Source: Candidatus Magasanikiibacteriota bacterium
GTDB taxonomy: Bacteria; Patescibacteriota; Patescibacteriia; Magasanikbacterales; GWA2-37-8
NCBI GenBank assembly: GCA_041665405.1
Contig: JBAYIZ010000001.1
Span: forward strand, 26,618 to 90,617
Length of the DNA stretch: 64,000 nt
Direction: 5' to 3'
Shown in pieces: positions 34,407-64,000 of this stretch. The notes beneath the pieces were generated by a model. That model worked only from the letters and a program-made list of their open reading frames with translations, had not been told where the DNA came from and did not search any database. Numbering within the stretch: position 1 is the first letter of the stretch; each line of letters opens with the position of its first letter. The translations under genes and the position numbers were made by a program.

Positions 34407-34490
34407 TTCCTCAAAAGAATAAAATAATCTTCTAAGGGAAGCCAGCGCCGACCGGTTGTGGAACCGGCCGGCGCTGTTGGCTACAGTAGG

Positions 34491-34577
34491 CTACGGCAGG
34501 TGGTTGAAGATGCCGACAATCACCGGCACAACAAGAGCTGCCAAGCACACGACGGTAATTTTCTGTCTTTTGGTCAT
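34491..34577 (-). CDS. Putative 28-aa hydrophobic peptide (MTKRQKITVVCLAALVVPVIVGIFNHLP) with Shine-Dalgarno site and GC-rich terminator, inside GC-rich islet 1
   Basis: GAGGAcctcATG start context; single TM-like segment; strong GC hairpin (34443-34476) immediately downstream. Confidence 0.3.
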   Translation of the reverse strand: MTKRQKITVVCLAALVVPVIVGIFNHLP

Positions 34578-34925
34578 GAGGTCCTCAACGATTCAGTCGA
34601 TTTTGATTGCCCACCGCGCGGAGTTGCGACGAGGGATATCTAATTTGATAAATATCAAACCAAATACCCCTGTCGCAATCGTTTGTGTCCTTTCTGTAGA
34701 ATGATATGGTTTGGCTAATTAGCAAAACCAGATACTTTTAAAAGAACGATGAATTATAATATGCTAAAAACGGGTAAAATGTCAATGGTTGAGGCTAGAA
34801 AGTTGACTTACGAGTAAATTAGTGATATTGTCTGCGCAAGTATCCGGACAGGCAACTATGCTCTGTGCCGGGTCATCATGACCGTATGCGACTTCAATGT
34901 CGTTGATTCACTGCAAGGAGACCCC

Positions 34926-35189
34926 ATGAATCGTCTTCGTGAGAAGCTGTCCCTGTTGTTGGCGCTGACCTTCAAGAACGACGTCACGGCCAAGGAGCTC
35001 GACGATGGCTTCACCGAGGTGAGCGACGCCTTCGACGCCGACGTGAACGAGGCGTTCCCGCCCGAGGACACCAGCGGCGACGGCACGGCCGCCACCGCCG
35101 AGGTCGCCGAGACGGTCGCCGAAGCACCCGCCCCGGCCCCCGAGCCCGATCCCGCGCCCGAGGCCGATGACAAGGGCGTCGAGCCGTAG
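34926..35189 (+). CDS. Small acidic protein with Ala/Pro/Glu-rich tail, encoded in GC-rich islet 1
   Basis: AAGGAG SD before ATG; strong GC third-position bias in this frame only; alternative upstream ATG at 34878. Confidence 0.45.
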   Translation: MNRLREKLSLLLALTFKNDVTAKELDDGFTEVSDAFDADVNEAFPPEDTSGDGTAATAEVAETVAEAPAPAPEPDPAPEADDKGVEP

Positions 35190-35266
35190 TCGCCGCGTAG
35201 CGGTCATGTGAGGCCGAGTGGGGAGGACTTCCTCCCCGCTCGGTCCTCGCAGCTACAAATCTGCTC

Positions 35267-44987: not shown

Positions 44988-45171
44988 TATTTAATAAGCC
45001 TCTGGCTTTTATCTGCATTCGTTCGGAAATTAAAAACTATAGTTTTTAATTTCTCTCACTCATTTTGATAATAAAAAATCCTCGATAGAATCGGGGATTT
45101 TTTAACCCATTAAATTCAGTTCTCTCTTGAATTTAATGGGAGGGAGGGGCCGAAGCGCCGAGAACCTCCGC

Positions 45172-45651
45172 CTAGAGGGAATTCTCGTCGTGGCACCTCC
45201 GGAAATAGAGTTCGCCGAGATGTTGTGCCATGTCCGCGAGACGGTTGGCAGTTTCATCATCGGTCGTTAGATGGCGAACGTTGCGCAGATTTCTCACCTG
45301 CGCTCTGATTTCGTCAGTCGTTGGTGGAACGGATGCCGTTAGGTAGGCCAGTACGTAGGTCGCATGGACCTCATACCAACCACCGAAGCCGACGTTCGAC
45401 CGGAATAGCTCCTGGGCAGTGATCCTTGCCCAGTCATTCCCGGTCAATTTCCACCAAATAAGCGCGATGTCAGCGAGACTATCTCTCGTTGTCACCGCAT
45501 CCTCTAGCTCGCTAGTGGCCAACTCCTGTTGGATGTAGGTTGCTCCGCCCAATTCTTCCAGGGTTTTCCTGGCTTCTTGGTCGGATCCTCTCCGCCACAA
45601 GTTTGTCACCTTGCAGTGAACAAACTCGAGCTGCCTATTTCTTGCGCTCAT
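45172..45651 (-). CDS. Hypothetical protein encoded in GC-rich islet 2
   Basis: 159-aa ORF with composition unlike its neighbours; 13-bp perfect inverted repeat (45108-45143) just past its 3' end. Confidence 0.45.
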   Translation of the reverse strand: MSARNRQLEFVHCKVTNLWRRGSDQEARKTLEELGGATYIQQELATSELEDAVTTRDSLADIALIWWKLTGNDWARITAQELFRSNVGFGGWYEVHATYVLAYLTASVPPTTDEIRAQVRNLRNVRHLTTDDETANRLADMAQHLGELYFRRCHDENSL

Positions 45652-45805
45652 GTTTGTCCTCTACAACGTACCGCTCCATGCGGTAAACATTAGACAGTAT
45701 CATAAATTACTGTTTTTGTCAACGGAGTCTGTGCACAACTTTTGACTTTTTTGCTAAAATGTGGTATTATTAAAATAAATAAATAGATTAAATTAAATTT
45801 ATAAT

Positions 45806-55674: not shown

Positions 55675-56067
55675 ATGCATACTAAAATTAAAGGGGATAT
55701 AGGGGAATTATTAGTAGCGGCAGATCTTTTAGAAAAAGGGTGGATGGTTTCGCTGCCAATCAGCGAAAACACCAGATACGACTTGATAATCGAAAAAAAT
55801 GGAAAAATAAAACGGGTACAAGTAAAAGCGGTTGTACCAAAGAATGGGGCAATGATTATCAATTGTCGGTCGTCAAATAATTGGAATGTTATAAACTACA
55901 CAAAGAAAGATTTTGAAATTTTAGCCGCAGTGGATATAATTTCAAAAAATGTTTATTATATACCAGTAAAATGTATAAATAGAAGATGCATTAATTTACG
56001 ACTAACAGCGTCGAAAAATAGACAAGAGAAAAATATAAATTTAGCAAAGAGTTTTTTGAAAATATAA
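55675..56067 (+). CDS. PD-(D/E)XK-type nuclease-like small protein, wedged between tRNA-Thr and intron-containing tRNA-Tyr
   Basis: GDIGE...YDLII..EKNGKIKRVQVK resembles a G-E / D / E-x-K restriction-endonuclease-like core; true start taken as ATG 55675. Confidence 0.45.
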   Translation: MHTKIKGDIGELLVAADLLEKGWMVSLPISENTRYDLIIEKNGKIKRVQVKAVVPKNGAMIINCRSSNNWNVINYTKKDFEILAAVDIISKNVYYIPVKCINRRCINLRLTASKNRQEKNINLAKSFLKI

Positions 56068-56072
56068 TTATT

Positions 56073-56338
56073 GGGCAGATACCAAAGTGGTTAAATGGGA
56101 CAGACTGTGAACAATTGCAGCTCTTAGGGGAAACCCTAGGATGAACTCTCTGGGATAACGGTGAAGGCTAATGGGGGTGCTAATACCGTGGGAACTCCGA
56201 AATGTTCGGGGAGCGCCGTAGAGACTAGATACCAGAGTACCCTTCGTGGGTAAAGATATAGTCCATGCCGTAAGGAAACTTATGGATAAGTGAAATCTGT
56301 TGGCTCCGCCTTCGAAGGTTCGAATCCTTCTCTGCCCA
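56073..56338 (+). tRNA. tRNA-Tyr (anticodon GUA) interrupted by a group I intron in the anticodon loop
   Basis: Exons reconstitute GGGCAGATACCAAAGTGGTTAAATGGGACAGACTGT|AAATCTGTTGGCTCCGCCTTCGAAGGTTCGAATCCTTCTCTGCCCA, closely matching bacterial tRNA-Tyr including the long variable arm. Confidence 0.8.
56109..56292 (+). ncRNA. Group I intron (~184 nt, subgroup-IC3-like, no ORF)
   Basis: Starts G and ends G; IGS GCAG can pair with the exon end CUGU (G-U at splice site); P2 TAGGG-GAAA-CCCTA; CGTAGAGACTAGA matches the P7/J6-7 core of the Azoarcus tRNA-Ile intron. Confidence 0.7.
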
Positions 56339-59262: not shown

Positions 59263-59514
59263 ATGTATTATCTCTACATACTTGAATGTGCAGACAAGAC
59301 ATTGTATACTGGTATTACTGTGGATTTGGATCGTCGGGTAAATGAGCATAATATGTCGAAATTGGGGGCCAAATATACGCATGCGCGACGACCGGTGAAA
59401 TTGGTATATTCCAAAAAGTTTAGAAATCGCTCTTTGGCATCAAAGGCAGAGAGTAAGATAAAACAAATGACAAGAGAGGAAAAAATAGAAGTAGTTCATT
59501 CGTTCAAAAAATAA
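59263..59514 (+). CDS. GIY-YIG-domain protein (YhbQ/UPF0213-like)
   Basis: YYLYILECADKTLYTGITVDLDRRVNEHN is a textbook GIY-YIG N-terminus. Confidence 0.8.
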   Translation: MYYLYILECADKTLYTGITVDLDRRVNEHNMSKLGAKYTHARRPVKLVYSKKFRNRSLASKAESKIKQMTREEKIEVVHSFKK

Positions 59515-59616
59515 AAAACGTCTTTAGACGATGGGTATTGGTGATTGTGTCTGGTCTGTGCGATCACATTCATCGTTTGGAGGCGAATCAGGTTGTTCTT
59601 TTCCCAGGAGGTGCTC

Positions 59617-59859
59617 ATGAGCCGGGTGTATTGCGGGTGCTCAGACGAACCCATTGCCAGGATCGACGATCGGAAGGATCTTTCCTTCAGTGGGCTTTGT
59701 GAGGCCTGTTACCAGAGGGGTGGAGATTACGGACGGCCGGTGGACGTCCCTGTCATCGTCCGCCCTGCCTCGGGTACTGCGGATGTCCTTCCTTTTGTGC
59801 CCAAGAGGAAGACGACGCAGAAGGAGAGGAGGGCCACCGCGGTGTTGAAGGTGGGCTAG
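59617..59859 (+). CDS. Small Cys-containing protein (putative 4-Cys zinc ribbon CxC...CxxC with basic tail), encoded in GC-rich islet 3
   Basis: GGAGGtgctcATG SD; 80 aa; GC-rich unlike neighbours; alternative upstream start at 59545. Confidence 0.4.
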   Translation: MSRVYCGCSDEPIARIDDRKDLSFSGLCEACYQRGGDYGRPVDVPVIVRPASGTADVLPFVPKRKTTQKERRATAVLKVG

Positions 59860-59941
59860 CTCCACGTAGTCAGAGTTCTGTGGCCGACTCGTTAAACAAA
59901 GGCCACACAGATATAAAATAACAATTTTAAAAAAGCTTTAT

Positions 59942-59985
59942 AAAACCATACGCTAATGGTATGAATTTGACAGCGTATGGTTTTT
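59942..59985 (+). terminator. Strong hairpin (AAAACCATACGCT..AGCGTATGGTTTTT)
   Basis: 12-bp stem plus T-run between islet 3 and mntH. Confidence 0.55.
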
Positions 59986-60063: not shown

Positions 60064-61428
60064 TTGTCTATTTTTTATTTTATGACTCATGTCAATTGGT
60101 TTAAATCTCGTAATTGGGTGAACGCGGACATTACTTTAGATAAAAGTTTGTCTGAATCACACAAATCTATCCCTGTCCCAAAAGGAATGCCTTTTTGGAA
60201 AAAGATGTTGGCATTTTCTGGTCCTGGTTATCTGGTAGCAGTTGGATATATGGATCCAGGAAATTGGGCTACCGATTTAGCGGGTGGTTCTAAATTTGGA
60301 TATACTTTATTATTTGTTATTTTGCTATCAAATTTGTTTGCAATGTTGTTGCAACATTTATCGGCCAAATTAGGCATTGTGACCGGTCGTGACCTAGCGC
60401 AAATTTGTCGTGATAATTTTGGTAAACGTACTAGCATATTTCTTTGGTTAATGGCAGAGATTATGATCGTGGCTTGCGATTTAGCAGAGGTAATTGGTTC
60501 AGCGATAGCGTTGAATTTACTATTCAAAATTCCGTTGATTGTCGGTGTGCTCATTACCGCTGCCGATGTTTTTATTTTATTATTATTACAAAATAAAGGA
60601 TTTCGTTATCTCGAAGCGTTGGTAATTGTTTTGGTAGGAACGGTCATGGCCGCATTTGGTTTTGAATTGTTTTTTTCTCAACCATCAATTAGCGCAATTT
60701 TTGGTGGATTTGTTCCGACTGCCGAATTATTTACCAATAAAGAAATGCTATATATTGGTATTGGTATTCTCGGAGCTACAGTGATGCCACATAATTTATA
60801 TTTGCATTCGGCTATCGTACAGACACGTGCTTACGAAGAAACAGAAGAAGGAAAAAAAGAAGCGGTTAAATTTTTGACGATTGATTCGACTGTGGCTTTG
60901 TTGTTTGCGTTTTTTATCAATGCGGCAATTTTGATTGTGTCTGCTTCCACTTTCTTTACACGCGGGATGAACGGTATAGCAGAAATTTCTCAAGCATATG
61001 ATTTGTTAACACCGCTGTTGGGTGCTAGTTTGGCAAGCATTTTATTTGCAGTTGCCTTATTGGCTTCTGGTCAAAATTCTACTATTACCGGTACTTTGGC
61101 TGGGCAGATTATTATGGAAGGATTCTTAAAAATAAAATTAGTGCCATGGTTGCGTCGTTTGATTACTCGCGGGTTGGCTATTATTCCAGCGGTGGGGGTG
61201 ATTTTATACTTTGGCACTGGTAGTTTGACCAAACTTCTTATTTTGAGCCAAGTAGTATTAAGTATTCAATTGCCGTTTGCAGTTTTTCCGCTAGTTTATT
61301 TTACTAGCAGCAAGAAACATCTTGGTAATTTTGCTAATGGGTTACTGATTAAAATATTGGCTTGGCTAATTGCCGGCATTATCGCAGGATTAAATATTTA
61401 TTTGGTTACGATGCTATTGCTGGGTTAA
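60064..61428 (+). CDS. mntH: NRAMP-family divalent metal (Mn2+/Fe2+) transporter
   Basis: GPGYLVAVGYMDPGNWATDLAGG and MPHNLYLHS signatures; ~11-12 TM. Confidence 0.9.
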   Translation: MSIFYFMTHVNWFKSRNWVNADITLDKSLSESHKSIPVPKGMPFWKKMLAFSGPGYLVAVGYMDPGNWATDLAGGSKFGYTLLFVILLSNLFAMLLQHLSAKLGIVTGRDLAQICRDNFGKRTSIFLWLMAEIMIVACDLAEVIGSAIALNLLFKIPLIVGVLITAADVFILLLLQNKGFRYLEALVIVLVGTVMAAFGFELFFSQPSISAIFGGFVPTAELFTNKEMLYIGIGILGATVMPHNLYLHSAIVQTRAYEETEEGKKEAVKFLTIDSTVALLFAFFINAAILIVSASTFFTRGMNGIAEISQAYDLLTPLLGASLASILFAVALLASGQNSTITGTLAGQIIMEGFLKIKLVPWLRRLITRGLAIIPAVGVILYFGTGSLTKLLILSQVVLSIQLPFAVFPLVYFTSSKKHLGNFANGLLIKILAWLIAGIIAGLNIYLVTMLLLG

Positions 61429-61435
61429 ATATTTT

Positions 61436-62197
61436 TTGTTAGAATGGATGGGTATGAAAATTATCTTCTTAGGAACAAATGGTTGGTATGATTCGGCTGT
61501 TGGTAGTACAGTTAGTGCTCTTATCGATAGTAAAGACGCCTACATCATTTTAGACGCTGGATTTGGTATTGTTAAAGCTCGAGACTATATTAAAGAAGAC
61601 AAGCCGGTGTATTTATTTTTGACTCATTTTCACATGGATCATGTTTGTGGTTTGCATGCGTTATCTCGCCTAAACATAAAACAGCCCCTGACTATTTTTA
61701 GTCACAGTGGTTTGAAAAAAATGTTGAAAACGATTTTTGATCATCCCTATGCTATGCCGCTGTCAGACATGAGTTTTCAAATCAAAACGGTAGAGTTAAA
61801 GGAAGGTAATTTTATTCAGCCGATAAAATTTGAATGTCGCAGTTTGGATCACATTGATTATACTTTTGGTTATCGCTTTTATTTAGAGGATAAAATTATT
61901 TCTTATTGTAGTGATACTAAGCCGTGTATTAATGATATAAAATTGGCAGATGGCGCTGATTTGTTAATACATGAATGTGGTTGGAATATTCGACCGGCAG
62001 ATGATTTTTGGGGACATACCGATCCAGAGGGGGCAGGGGAGGTAGCCGCAAAAGCGAGAGCCAAAAAACTTTGTCTGACACATTTTGGCCCCAATGCTTT
62101 TGAAACACGCGCCAAAAGATTCGATGGTCAAAAACGAGCGAGAAAAATTTTCAAAAATACCCTGTCTGCGTTTGATGGTATGGTAGTGAAAGTATAA
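61436..62197 (+). CDS. Metallo-beta-lactamase-fold hydrolase (RNase Z-like)
   Basis: HxHxDH motif (THFHMDHVCG) and downstream His/Asp ligands. Confidence 0.7.
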   Translation: MLEWMGMKIIFLGTNGWYDSAVGSTVSALIDSKDAYIILDAGFGIVKARDYIKEDKPVYLFLTHFHMDHVCGLHALSRLNIKQPLTIFSHSGLKKMLKTIFDHPYAMPLSDMSFQIKTVELKEGNFIQPIKFECRSLDHIDYTFGYRFYLEDKIISYCSDTKPCINDIKLADGADLLIHECGWNIRPADDFWGHTDPEGAGEVAAKARAKKLCLTHFGPNAFETRAKRFDGQKRARKIFKNTLSAFDGMVVKV

Positions 62198-62355
62198 AAT
62201 AATTAAGATAAAAATCCGCCATTTAAATAAGGCGGATTCTTTTTTTGCTACACTACAACGAAATGCACCGTCTTGACAGTTATTTACATTTAATATATTA
62301 TATACCTATACCTATGGTCTAGGTACTAACATAAATTAATAAATAATGTAAAATT

Positions 62356-62631
62356 ATGATAGAACCATACAAAGGAAAAATCAAGTTGAGTCTCAAAAAA
62401 GCTCAAGGACAGCTTAAATTATTGGATAAAATGATTGAAGAAGATCGCTATTGTATTGATGTGGCTCAACAGATCAATGCCGCGATTGGTTTGTTAAAAC
62501 AAATAAATAACACCATTTTAGAAAATCATTTGCAAAGTTGTGGTACCAATAAACTGAATTCCAGGAGCACTGAAGAAAAAGCTCAGTTTATCAAAGAATT
62601 AATTAAAACTTTTAATTTAACTGGTAAATAA
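62356..62631 (+). CDS. csoR: CsoR/RcnR-family metal-sensing transcriptional repressor
   Basis: Four-helix-bundle pattern with Cys...His...Cys ligands (YCIDVAQQ...ENHLQSC). Confidence 0.7.
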   Translation: MIEPYKGKIKLSLKKAQGQLKLLDKMIEEDRYCIDVAQQINAAIGLLKQINNTILENHLQSCGTNKLNSRSTEEKAQFIKELIKTFNLTGK

Positions 62632-62635
62632 TATT

Positions 62636-64000
62636 ATGCCTAAATTTATTGTCCCTATTAAAGGGATGCATTGTAAATCATGTGAAATTTTAGTCGAACA
62701 AAACTTGAACAAAGTTTGTGGAGTAGTCAAAGCAGACGTTGATCATAAAATCGGTCAAGCGGTAGTGTATTTCGAAAATACAAAACCAGCACAGGAGCAA
62801 ATCGCTTCGGCAGTCGAGGAATCCGGATATAAAATTGGCATAAAAGAAAAAAATGGTTGGTTGTCCAAAGATGTTAGTGATTATCAAAATTTATTGTATG
62901 GTGCCGTGATATTGTTTGTGTTCTATTTCATAGCGCGTAGTTTCGGTATATTTAATGTCAATGTTAATACTGAAAATAGCGGTTTAGGCGTAGTATTATT
63001 AGTAGGTTTAGTTGCAGGTATTTCCACCTGTATGGCGATGGTTGGTGGTTTGGTGCTAGGGCTGTCAGCTCGTCATGCAGAACTTCATCCAGAGGCTTCG
63101 GCACAACAAAAATTTCGTCCCCACATTTATTTTAATTTAGGTAGAGTAATTGGTTTTGCGTTATTAGGTGGAATTATTGGCTTGCTTGGTTCGGCCTTCA
63201 AAATTTCTGCTGGATTTTTAGGAGTACTTACTATTATCGTCAGTTTAGTAATGATTTTCTTAGGTTTAAAATTAATTAATATTTTTCCATTTTTACAAGA
63301 TAAAAATATTGTCTTACCAAAAAGTATCGCCAAATTTTTTGGGCTAGGAAAAGAAAATAGAGAATATAGTCATCGTGGTGCGATAATTTCTGGTGCGGCG
63401 ACTTTTTTTCTGCCTTGTGGTTTTACACAGGCGATGCAACTCTACGCCGTAAGTTCTGGTAGTTTCACTCAGGGTGCTCTGATAATGGGATTGTTTGCAC
63501 TCGGTACGGCACCAGGCCTGCTCGGTATTGGTGGTTTGTCTTCAATCTTCAAAGGAAAAAAAGCACGAATATTTTTTGCGGCAGCTGGTATCGCGATAAT
63601 TATATTCGGTTGGTATAATATTAGTAATGCCAGCCGATTGTTTGGAAATGGATCAGTGGATGTCGCCACCACCGCAGTCACTAGTGATGCACAAGTGATA
63701 AATATGGTTCAGGGTTTTGATGGATATAGTCCAAATGTTTTCACAATACAAAAGGGCCGTCAGGTAAAATGGGTGATTAAATCGGAAACATCATTTTCGT
63801 GTGCCAGCTATATCGTAATGCCGAAATTTAATATTAGTCAGCCGTTAAAGAAGGGTGAAAATATTATTACCTTTATGCCGACAGAAACTGGTGAGATTCC
63901 ATTTTCTTGTTCTATGGGTATGTATACTGGAAAATTTATTGTGGTAGATAAAGTAACTTTTTTACCAGCAGTGCAAAAAGTATCAGCAGCACCAATAGCA
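62636..64000 (+). CDS. Heavy-metal-associated (HMA, MxCxxC) domain fused to a DsbD/CcdA-like polytopic membrane domain and a C-terminal soluble domain; 3' end outside window
   Basis: GMHCKSC metal-binding motif; ~8 TM helices with Cys pairs (STCMA, LPCGF); frame open to the window end. Confidence 0.6.
   Translation, partial: MPKFIVPIKGMHCKSCEILVEQNLNKVCGVVKADVDHKIGQAVVYFENTKPAQEQIASAVEESGYKIGIKEKNGWLSKDVSDYQNLLYGAVILFVFYFIARSFGIFNVNVNTENSGLGVVLLVGLVAGISTCMAMVGGLVLGLSARHAELHPEASAQQKFRPHIYFNLGRVIGFALLGGIIGLLGSAFKISAGFLGVLTIIVSLVMIFLGLKLINIFPFLQDKNIVLPKSIAKFFGLGKENREYSHRGAIISGAATFFLPCGFTQAMQLYAVSSGSFTQGALIMGLFALGTAPGLLGIGGLSSIFKGKKARIFFAAAGIAIIIFGWYNISNASRLFGNGSVDVATTAVTSDAQVINMVQGFDGYSPNVFTIQKGRQVKWVIKSETSFSCASYIVMPKFNISQPLKKGENIITFMPTETGEIPFSCSMGMYTGKFIVVDKVTFLPAVQKVSAAPIA

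Follow-up and report, generated by a model that had tools for sequence, protein, structure and literature searches.

Why does a short patch of GC-rich DNA sit between two native genes in a genome of much lower GC content? We addressed this question in a window of 64,000 nt (the whole stretch analysed here: Candidatus Magasanikiibacteriota bacterium, GenBank assembly GCA_041665405.1, contig JBAYIZ010000001.1, positions 26,618 to 90,617 of the forward strand; coordinates below count from its first nucleotide). The patch, termed islet 3, lies in the gap between the stop codon of a GIY-YIG domain gene (59514) and the ATG of the NRAMP transporter gene mntH (60082). Its GC content is 0.59-0.62 in 200-nt segments between 59518 and 59942, compared with a mean of 0.374 for the window and a 99th percentile of 0.555 for all 200-nt segments. 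We conclude that islet 3 is a real, recently acquired single-gene foreign islet with an orphan mini-protein containing four cysteines (Cys4), and that it represents a fairly ordinary horizontal acquisition. A first-pass annotation had described a GC-rich patch here with a small open reading frame (ORF) led by a Shine-Dalgarno (SD) sequence, and with small corrections this description held. The insert comprises the following features:

59515 to 59930, + strand: islet 3, the foreign insert (56-62% GC), from the GIY-YIG stop codon (59514) to the resumption of homology with the related locus L003 (~59935)
59519 to 59585, + strand: strand-specific RNA hairpin of 67 nt with 28 pairs (10 G-C, 9 A-U, 9 G·U)
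59606 to 59611, + strand: SD sequence AGGAGG, with a 5-nt spacer to the ATG
59617 to 59859, + strand: orphan ORF of 80 codons, ATG 59617 to TAG 59859, encoding MSRVYCGC...LCEACY... with Cys6, 8, 28 and 31 and a basic C-terminal tail
59879 to 59907, + strand: weak GC hairpin without a T-run (TGTGGCC-n15-GGCCACA), 3' of the ORF

In this order, the 67-nt hairpin, the AGGAGG, the ORF and the weak T-less hairpin cover nearly the whole insert. About 25 nt of AT-rich sequence separates the weak hairpin from the native terminator downstream.

Islet 3 is a real insert of foreign origin

The exact GIY-YIG protein is also encoded on two other contigs, from Logan SRR6484324 and JGI 3300037810. The Logan contig matches base for base over the whole of islet 3 and both junctions; the JGI contig is identical over the left junction and stops 2 nt beyond the ORF stop codon. 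Islet 2, a companion islet described below, is present in the same two assemblies. The absence of the islets from independent assemblies had been named beforehand as the observation that would refute the proposal; instead, we found two further assemblies that carry islet 3 identically.

The GC content at codon positions 1, 2 and 3 (GC1, GC2 and GC3) was 0.58, 0.51 and 0.72 in the islet 3 ORF and ~0.45, ~0.35 and ~0.33 in native genes. With native GC3 at ~0.3, the ORF has barely ameliorated, and islet 3 is therefore probably recent. The expression signals differed as well. An SD core was found in only 1 of 63 upstream regions of window ORFs, and that one belongs to islet 2. At candidate starts in 58 long ORFs, an SD core preceded 3.7%, compared with 5.0% at random positions, and the upstream regions were AT-rich. 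Native terminators have T-runs, which are missing from the islet hairpins. Composition, amino-acid usage and expression signals all indicate a donor unlike the host.

The codon-position GC, the SD in a host that does not use SD sequences and the absence of the islet from the five closest relatives (see below) thus bear out the earlier proposal of acquisition from outside. The high-GC source proposed with it is plausible, although no search identified a donor. Since the proteins of islets 1b, 2 and 3 are all three orphans, we infer that the source was fast-evolving and poorly sampled (for example phages or mobile elements whose hosts are unsampled), in preference to a well-known phylum of high GC.

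The insert probably encodes an orphan protein

Judged from its sequence, the 80-codon ORF is probably a genuine coding sequence. The order GC3 > GC1 > GC2 was seen in its frame alone, and a chi-square test on its codon-position GC counts gave p ~0.02. Together with the correctly spaced SD, this order points to a coding sequence from a GC-rich genome. The predicted protein of 80 aa has the pattern MSRVYCGCSDEP...LCEACYQRGG...PKRKTTQKERRATAVLKVG. Two alternative in-frame starts exist: TTG 59593, with GGAGG at 59579-59583, would give 88 aa and is the start used by the JGI gene caller, and TTG 59545 would give 104 aa. An antisense ORF (59641-59865, 74 aa) was rejected for want of an SD and because GC is distributed wrongly over its codon positions.

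The protein was an orphan in every search. A word-indexed search of 5.8 billion protein clusters returned the protein itself only, and a full HMMER pass over 1.84 billion representatives returned the protein and two weak matches. The latter were Cys-free repeat proteins whose scores were summed over six repeats, and we judged them spurious. There was no match in Pfam (E <= 0.1), NCBIfam (E <= 1), PHROGs or PADLOC; a PDB sequence search yielded a chance match alone (E 1.6); and back-translated scans of viral and metagenome contigs found nothing for the protein. Searches of INPHARED phages and PLSDB plasmids by tblastn and blastn likewise produced no credible match.

The slot between GIY-YIG and mntH is variable among relatives

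Relatives were collected by searches with the NRAMP and PIF1 proteins; the best NRAMP relatives were Paceibacterota and Magasanikbacteria metagenome-assembled genomes (MAGs). The window genes are those of an ultra-small bacterium of the candidate phyla radiation (CPR, Patescibacteria), and the NCBI entry for the islet 1b protein, WCV83_00320, comes from a Candidatus Magasanikbacteria MAG. Three native features frame the slot:

59263 to 59514, + strand: GIY-YIG domain gene, 83 aa, native left flank (Pfam PF01541, E 4.9e-17)
59942 to 59984, both strands: native bidirectional terminator with a perfect 13-bp stem, 59942-59954/59972-59984 (z-score -3.0 on the + strand and -7.3 on the - strand)
60082 to 61428, + strand: mntH (NRAMP), native right flank, with the start MTHVNWFK as in relatives (Pfam PF01566, E 2.6e-133)

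Islet 3 is absent from the five closest relatives found, in which the genes on either side are the same. In locus L003, the GIY-YIG gene is followed by an unrelated gene of 142 aa (here called X140), a hairpin and mntH; from TTTAT(A/T)AAAC(C/T)ATAC (TTTATAAAACCATAC onward), ~25 nt after the islet, the locus is again homologous to the window. Locus L084 has no insert after GIY-YIG, which is followed there by an FAD-type oxidoreductase-like gene (- strand; named from its N-terminal motif alone), a RibD_C-like gene (- strand), X140 and mntH. In L085, a different ORF of 179 aa and 51-54% GC lies between GIY-YIG and an oxidoreductase gene, and the contig ends before mntH. No GC-rich gene was present upstream of mntH in L005, L007 and L010. 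All three of L003, L084 and L085 thus had a conserved GIY-YIG gene, and L003 and L084 a conserved mntH as well, with the cargo different or absent each time. The GIY-YIG protein is 75-78% identical in L003, L084, L085 and L087, whatever cargo follows. No similarity of islet 3 to the relatives' cargo was detected in any frame (blastn-short, tblastx), and for this reason we also rejected the idea that islet 3 is a degraded X140 remnant. Since nothing similar occurred in any relative examined, islet 3 is species- or strain-specific.

The downstream terminator had been described with a 12-bp stem. The terminator is real, but its stem is 13 bp, and it is native and lies outside islet 3, because its left arm already aligns with L003. 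The stem is followed by a T-run, and the loop holds the conserved -35 element of mntH (TTGACA, 59966-59971). The 3' arm of the terminator lies in the spacer of the mntH promoter, and this overlap could link initiation at mntH to read-through from upstream.

Several further observations concern cargo in the relatives. The L085 ORF (3574-4113, + strand), immediately 3' of GIY-YIG, has a signal-peptide-like N-terminus; its coding part alone is GC-rich, and its promoter (TTGACT-17-TATACT) and terminators are AT-rich and host-like. The X140 family (~140 aa, 48-51% GC, no Pfam domain) is found at L003 2702-3130, L006 606-1040 and L084 10019-10513, directly upstream of mntH in all three relatives, and the L006 copy has an AGGAGG SD; the window has islet 3 instead. 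A second family, Y250 (229-290 aa, 48-53% GC, with an N-terminal transmembrane helix and no Pfam domain in the L004 member scanned), has copies on the - strand at L003 5945-6634, L004 2695-3558, L006 3442-4314 and L010 7118-7858. In L003, L004 and L006 it is flanked by an MBL-fold gene and csoR; the L010 copy comes after the MBL-fold gene, in a locus where no csoR was detected. The window has no Y250, and the corresponding spacer is just 159 bp. This position is a second slot prone to swapping, again with cargo of elevated GC. Neither X140 nor Y250 was found in scans of viral contigs.

A functional single-gene unit or passenger DNA

How should the insert be read as a whole? We favour, with a probability of roughly 0.55, an acquired foreign single-gene unit of ~400 bp that functions in the swap-prone GIY-YIG/mntH slot, a slot which appears to carry different cargo in each related genome examined. 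The donor would be an SD-using cell of ~60% GC or its phage or plasmid. Entry would most likely have been by uptake of environmental or host DNA followed by illegitimate recombination. CPR Saccharibacteria have been shown to be naturally competent (PMC10633639), and horizontal gene transfer (HGT) into Patescibacteria is documented (PMC12455944). The unit would probably be transcribed by read-through from the pif1-arfB-GIY-YIG operon, with the transcript stopping at the native terminator at 59942-59984.

Several observations weigh against this reading. The length of the ORF is marginal for DNA of 56% GC (p ~0.05, 2000 dinucleotide shuffles). No search returned a homologue, so that neither conservation nor the ratio of nonsynonymous to synonymous substitutions (dN/dS) nor covariation supports translation or the importance of the cysteines, and no donor was identified in any search. 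No sigma-70-like promoter of its own was found before the ORF. As the host does not use SD sequences, an SD-led gene may be poorly translated. The three assemblies that carry islet 3 may stem from the same sample or reads. Finally, a Foldseek search of the predicted structure (pLDDT 50, see below) against PDB gave no meaningful match.

Three of these points, namely the orphan protein without evidence of conservation, the host without SD use and the missing promoter, would equally be expected if the insert were a non-functional foreign fragment, fixed by chance, whose ORF, SD and hairpins are leftovers from the donor and are neither expressed nor useful. The barely ameliorated GC3 fits such passenger DNA too, because an insert this young could stay intact without selection, and the slot is tolerant of turnover. 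However, a random 400-bp fragment would rarely consist of one complete gene with start signals and hairpins and almost nothing besides, yet all four islets of the window have this make-up. Moreover, AT-rich promoter-like sequences of host style, TTGAC(A/T), lie upstream in islets 1b and 2, suggesting integration into host expression. We therefore regard passenger DNA as unlikely, although it is an account to be taken seriously.

A strand-specific hairpin precedes the ORF

GC-rich patches in AT-rich genomes are a classic mark of structured RNAs. The functional product of islet 3 could accordingly be an RNA (a structured small RNA or a cis-acting leader), with the ORF incidental to the high GC content. 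The 67-nt hairpin lends this idea some substance. It follows directly after the GIY-YIG stop, and its end is 20 nt from the SD and 31 nt from the ATG. On the + strand it folds with -31.9 kcal/mol (z-score -4.5; 0 of 200 shuffles as good), compared with -9.5 kcal/mol (z-score -0.4) on the - strand. With nine of its pairs being G·U, this contrast is the mark of selection for structure in the + strand RNA, and the G·U-rich hairpin is a feature newly described here. Its 3' arm pairs up the upstream GGAGG (59579-59583) that would serve TTG 59593, and leaves the main SD free. The region as a whole also folds better than shuffled sequences (z-score -3.3), and another GC-elevated patch in the window is an RNA, the group I intron at 56109-56292.

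The remaining evidence argues against an RNA product. When the whole region is folded from its opposite strand, the score is similar (z-score -3.15), and the whole-region signal therefore stems mostly from the terminal hairpins. The structure of the ORF body is unremarkable (z-scores -0.5 and -2.1), and Rfam gave nothing credible for islet 3 at the gathering score or at E <= 5. The codon-position GC periodicity and the geometry of SD and ATG indicate coding. Taken together, these results leave an RNA as the sole functional product improbable. As for the hairpin on the 3' side, the GTGGCC...GGCCAC structure reported before is real, though weak: it has a 7-bp stem (59879-59885/59901-59907), a 15-nt loop, a free energy of -12 kcal/mol and a z-score of -1.6.

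Within a functional single-gene unit, the 5' hairpin may act on the RNA as a 5'-end stabiliser, as an RNase III-type processing site or as what was the donor's upstream terminator. Processing of the RNase III type would split the foreign cistron from the GIY-YIG message.

The predicted protein has a putative Cys4 zinc site

The cysteines follow the pattern C-x-C-x19-C-x-x-C (C6-x-C8 and C28-x-x-C31), and a count from the sequence puts the net charge of the tail (residues 61-80) at about +6. The protein had been called a putative zinc ribbon. The CxC...CxxC arrangement and the basic tail are indeed present, but no curated zinc-ribbon profile matched (Pfam E <= 0.1, NCBIfam E <= 1) and the first pair is CxC rather than CxxC, so that membership of a zinc-ribbon family is not supported. 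A single-sequence AlphaFold model of low confidence (predicted local distance difference test, pLDDT, 50) has strands at residues 2-6 and 12-16 and a helix at 27-35, with C6 and C8 on the beta-hairpin and C28 and C31 at the N-terminus of the helix. As far as a model of this confidence can be read, the geometry is treble-clef-like and not ribbon-like, and would fit a Cys4 zinc site. From sequence and model, one may reasonably suppose a structural zinc site and a basic tail that binds nucleic acid: the N-terminal 35 residues would probably chelate one zinc ion via Cys6, Cys8, Cys28 and Cys31, and the Lys/Arg-rich tail would probably contact nucleic acid.

Downstream of the islet lies a metal-homeostasis cluster (60082-64000) comprising NRAMP, an MBL-fold protein, a CsoR-type metal repressor and an HMA-DsbD_2-cupredoxin fusion. 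With four cysteines inside 26 residues, and with its gene directly upstream of this cluster, the mini-protein might be thought a metallochaperone, buffer or regulator belonging to it. However, a strong terminator and mntH's own conserved promoter stand between islet and mntH, the metal cluster is kept in relatives that lack the islet 3 gene, and unrelated cargo fills the slot elsewhere. Given the foreign origin of islet 3, the adjacency is likely coincidental. A metal-handling accessory is thus very unlikely, and for the acquired single-gene unit that we favour, the protein is one more small Cys4 orphan whose role is not assignable from sequence.

The companion islets show no sign of a shared vehicle

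The first-pass annotation had counted three GC-rich islets with one small gene each and had suggested a common mobile vehicle. The islets with their SD-led ORFs are there, but they form four units, not three. Besides islet 3 these are:

34443 to 34676, - strand: islet 1a, with an ORF for a hydrophobic peptide of 28 aa at 34491-34577 (MTKRQKITVVCLAALVVPVIVGIFNHLP) and the SD GAGGA
34816 to 35250, + strand: islet 1b, up to 76% GC, with an orphan ORF for an acidic, Ala/Pro-rich protein of 87 aa at 34926-35189 and the SD AAGGAG
45120 to 45700, - strand: islet 2, 54% GC, with an orphan ORF of 159 aa at 45172-45651 and the SD AGAGGA

All four islet ORFs are intact and SD-led. Islet 1a has a 22-bp hairpin in the 5' leader (z-score -5.2) and a GC hairpin on the 3' side (z-score -4.7); from its sequence it looks like a type I toxin or a small membrane peptide. 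Islet 1b, just before the L10 leader and rplJ, has a GC3 of 0.90, a 19-bp GC hairpin without a T-run (z-score -6.7) and a promoter-like TTGACT sequence upstream; its protein matched itself only (the NCBI entry mentioned above), with none in INPHARED phage records. Islet 2 lies between the terminator of a glycosyltransferase gene and a divergent gene of 860 aa without a Pfam match. Its ORF is longer than expected by chance (p 0.006) and a promoter-like TTGACA sequence is present; the protein search returned the protein itself only, and INPHARED and a back-translated viral-contig scan returned none.

Each GC-rich patch outside native genes corresponds to an islet ORF, with the exception of a patch of ~50% GC at 56.1-56.4 kb. 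This patch is explained by a tRNA-Tyr(GUA) gene (56073-56338, + strand) whose anticodon loop is split by a 184-nt group I intron (56109-56292). The intron scored 48.8 bits against Rfam Intron_gpI (E 1.8e-11), just below the gathering score of 50. ARAGORN folds the exons, once joined, as tRNA-Tyr; standard tRNA scans had missed the gene. Just upstream of the tRNA and outside the intron, an ORF at 55675-56067 (+ strand) encodes a PD-(D/E)XK endonuclease (Pfam PDDEXK_5, E 2.5e-27), which we take to be a tRNA-intron homing endonuclease of the I-Ssp6803I type.

Could the islets be cargo of one defined mobile vehicle, such as an integron-type cassette, a derivative of a miniature inverted-repeat transposable element (MITE) or insertion sequence (IS), or a homing-endonuclease unit? 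That several single-gene islets each end in a hairpin would fit, as would the adjoining GIY-YIG gene and the homing endonuclease and group I intron 3.5 kb away. However, blastn-short and tblastx detected no boundary motif, repeat, 3' element or protein similarity common to the islets, and a repeat scan of islet 3 found neither terminal inverted repeats nor a target-site duplication. There was no second copy of islet 3 in the window or in 164 related loci (1.49 Mb). The 3' hairpin of islet 3 (29 nt, 7-bp stem) is too short for an attC site and has no paired core sites, and GIY-YIG is native and kept in relatives without the islet. The proposed check for shared boundary motifs was thus negative and the common vehicle did not hold up; we consider it highly unlikely. 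The lack of shared boundaries, the single copy of islet 3 and the range of GC contents among the islets (54-69%) fit independent acquisitions rather than one vehicle.

An assembly or binning chimera, in which reads of a high-GC organism were misjoined into the CPR contig, would account for the abrupt change in composition and for the lack of homologues that could anchor islet 3, but is hardly credible, as both junctions are reproduced base for base in the Logan contig and the left one in the JGI contig, islet 2 is also carried by those two assemblies, and the insert sits exactly between a stop codon and the native terminator and promoter.

What the islets may mean

Beyond the acquired single-gene unit, the islets may be the trace of a recurrent gene sampling, in which complete small genes of neighbours or hosts with high GC, or of their phages, are captured through DNA uptake at a few tolerant slots between genes. 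We regard this wider view as speculative and rather improbable. Such captured genes would bring SD sequences and T-less terminators of donor type into a genome otherwise without SD use. If gene sampling were true, the composition and signals of the islets could point to the host lineage of the episymbiont, and the SD-led orphans could form a separately translated set related to host interaction or conflict. Among these orphans would be the Cys4 mini-protein, which is encoded beside a GIY-YIG nuclease without a DNA-binding domain. If donors were traced in the same sample, the islets could help to show which hosts uncultivated Magasanikbacteria have.

A unit of 0.4 kb would escape HGT detection wherever the tool requires a donor or a long island, so that gene influx into streamlined CPR genomes may be underestimated. 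SD-led foreign genes in an SD-less host are a simple extra marker of foreign origin, and they raise the question of their translatability there. The contrast between the SD of islet 3 and the SD-less genome, together with the swap-prone slot, seems to us most worth following.

Comparison with known systems

In islet 3, as in an integron gene cassette, a small orphan ORF that lacks a promoter has an imperfect hairpin behind it. An attC site consists of paired core sites in an imperfect palindrome of 57-141 nt. By inspection, islet 3 has no attC-type site with core sites, and there is neither a cassette array nor a 3' element common to the islets. With GC-rich structured RNAs of AT-rich genomes it shares the GC-rich intergenic patch and the stable, strand-specific hairpin, but its body has coding periodicity, no exceptional structure and no Rfam match.

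The predicted protein resembles small Cys4 zinc-finger proteins (zinc ribbons and treble clefs) in having two cysteine pairs ~20 residues apart, a small size, a basic tail, and a predicted beta-hairpin knuckle and helix N-terminus. It differs from them in that no profile matched and its first pair is CxC, in that there are no homologues in which cysteine conservation could be seen, and in that the fold is a low-confidence prediction only.

A survey of HGT and genomic islands in groundwater Patescibacteria (PMC12455944) likewise described foreign genes in streamlined CPR genomes, with donors often unrecovered. It covered genomic islands, single genes with identifiable donors and prophages, whereas islet 3 is a single orphan of 0.4 kb.

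Horizontally acquired single-gene islets and the 'morons' of phages, which are independent ORF units of unusual composition set between resident genes, are a further comparison. Unlike these, islet 3 lies in a CPR chromosome and not in a prophage, no promoter of its own was detected, it has no known donor, integrase or att site (no search for an integrase gene having been made in the window), and its cargo is an absolute orphan. What it has in common with them is a GC content that deviates from the host, a single small ORF that brings its own translation signal, a hairpin downstream, and an intergenic insertion that leaves the neighbouring genes undisrupted and is present in some relatives and absent from others.

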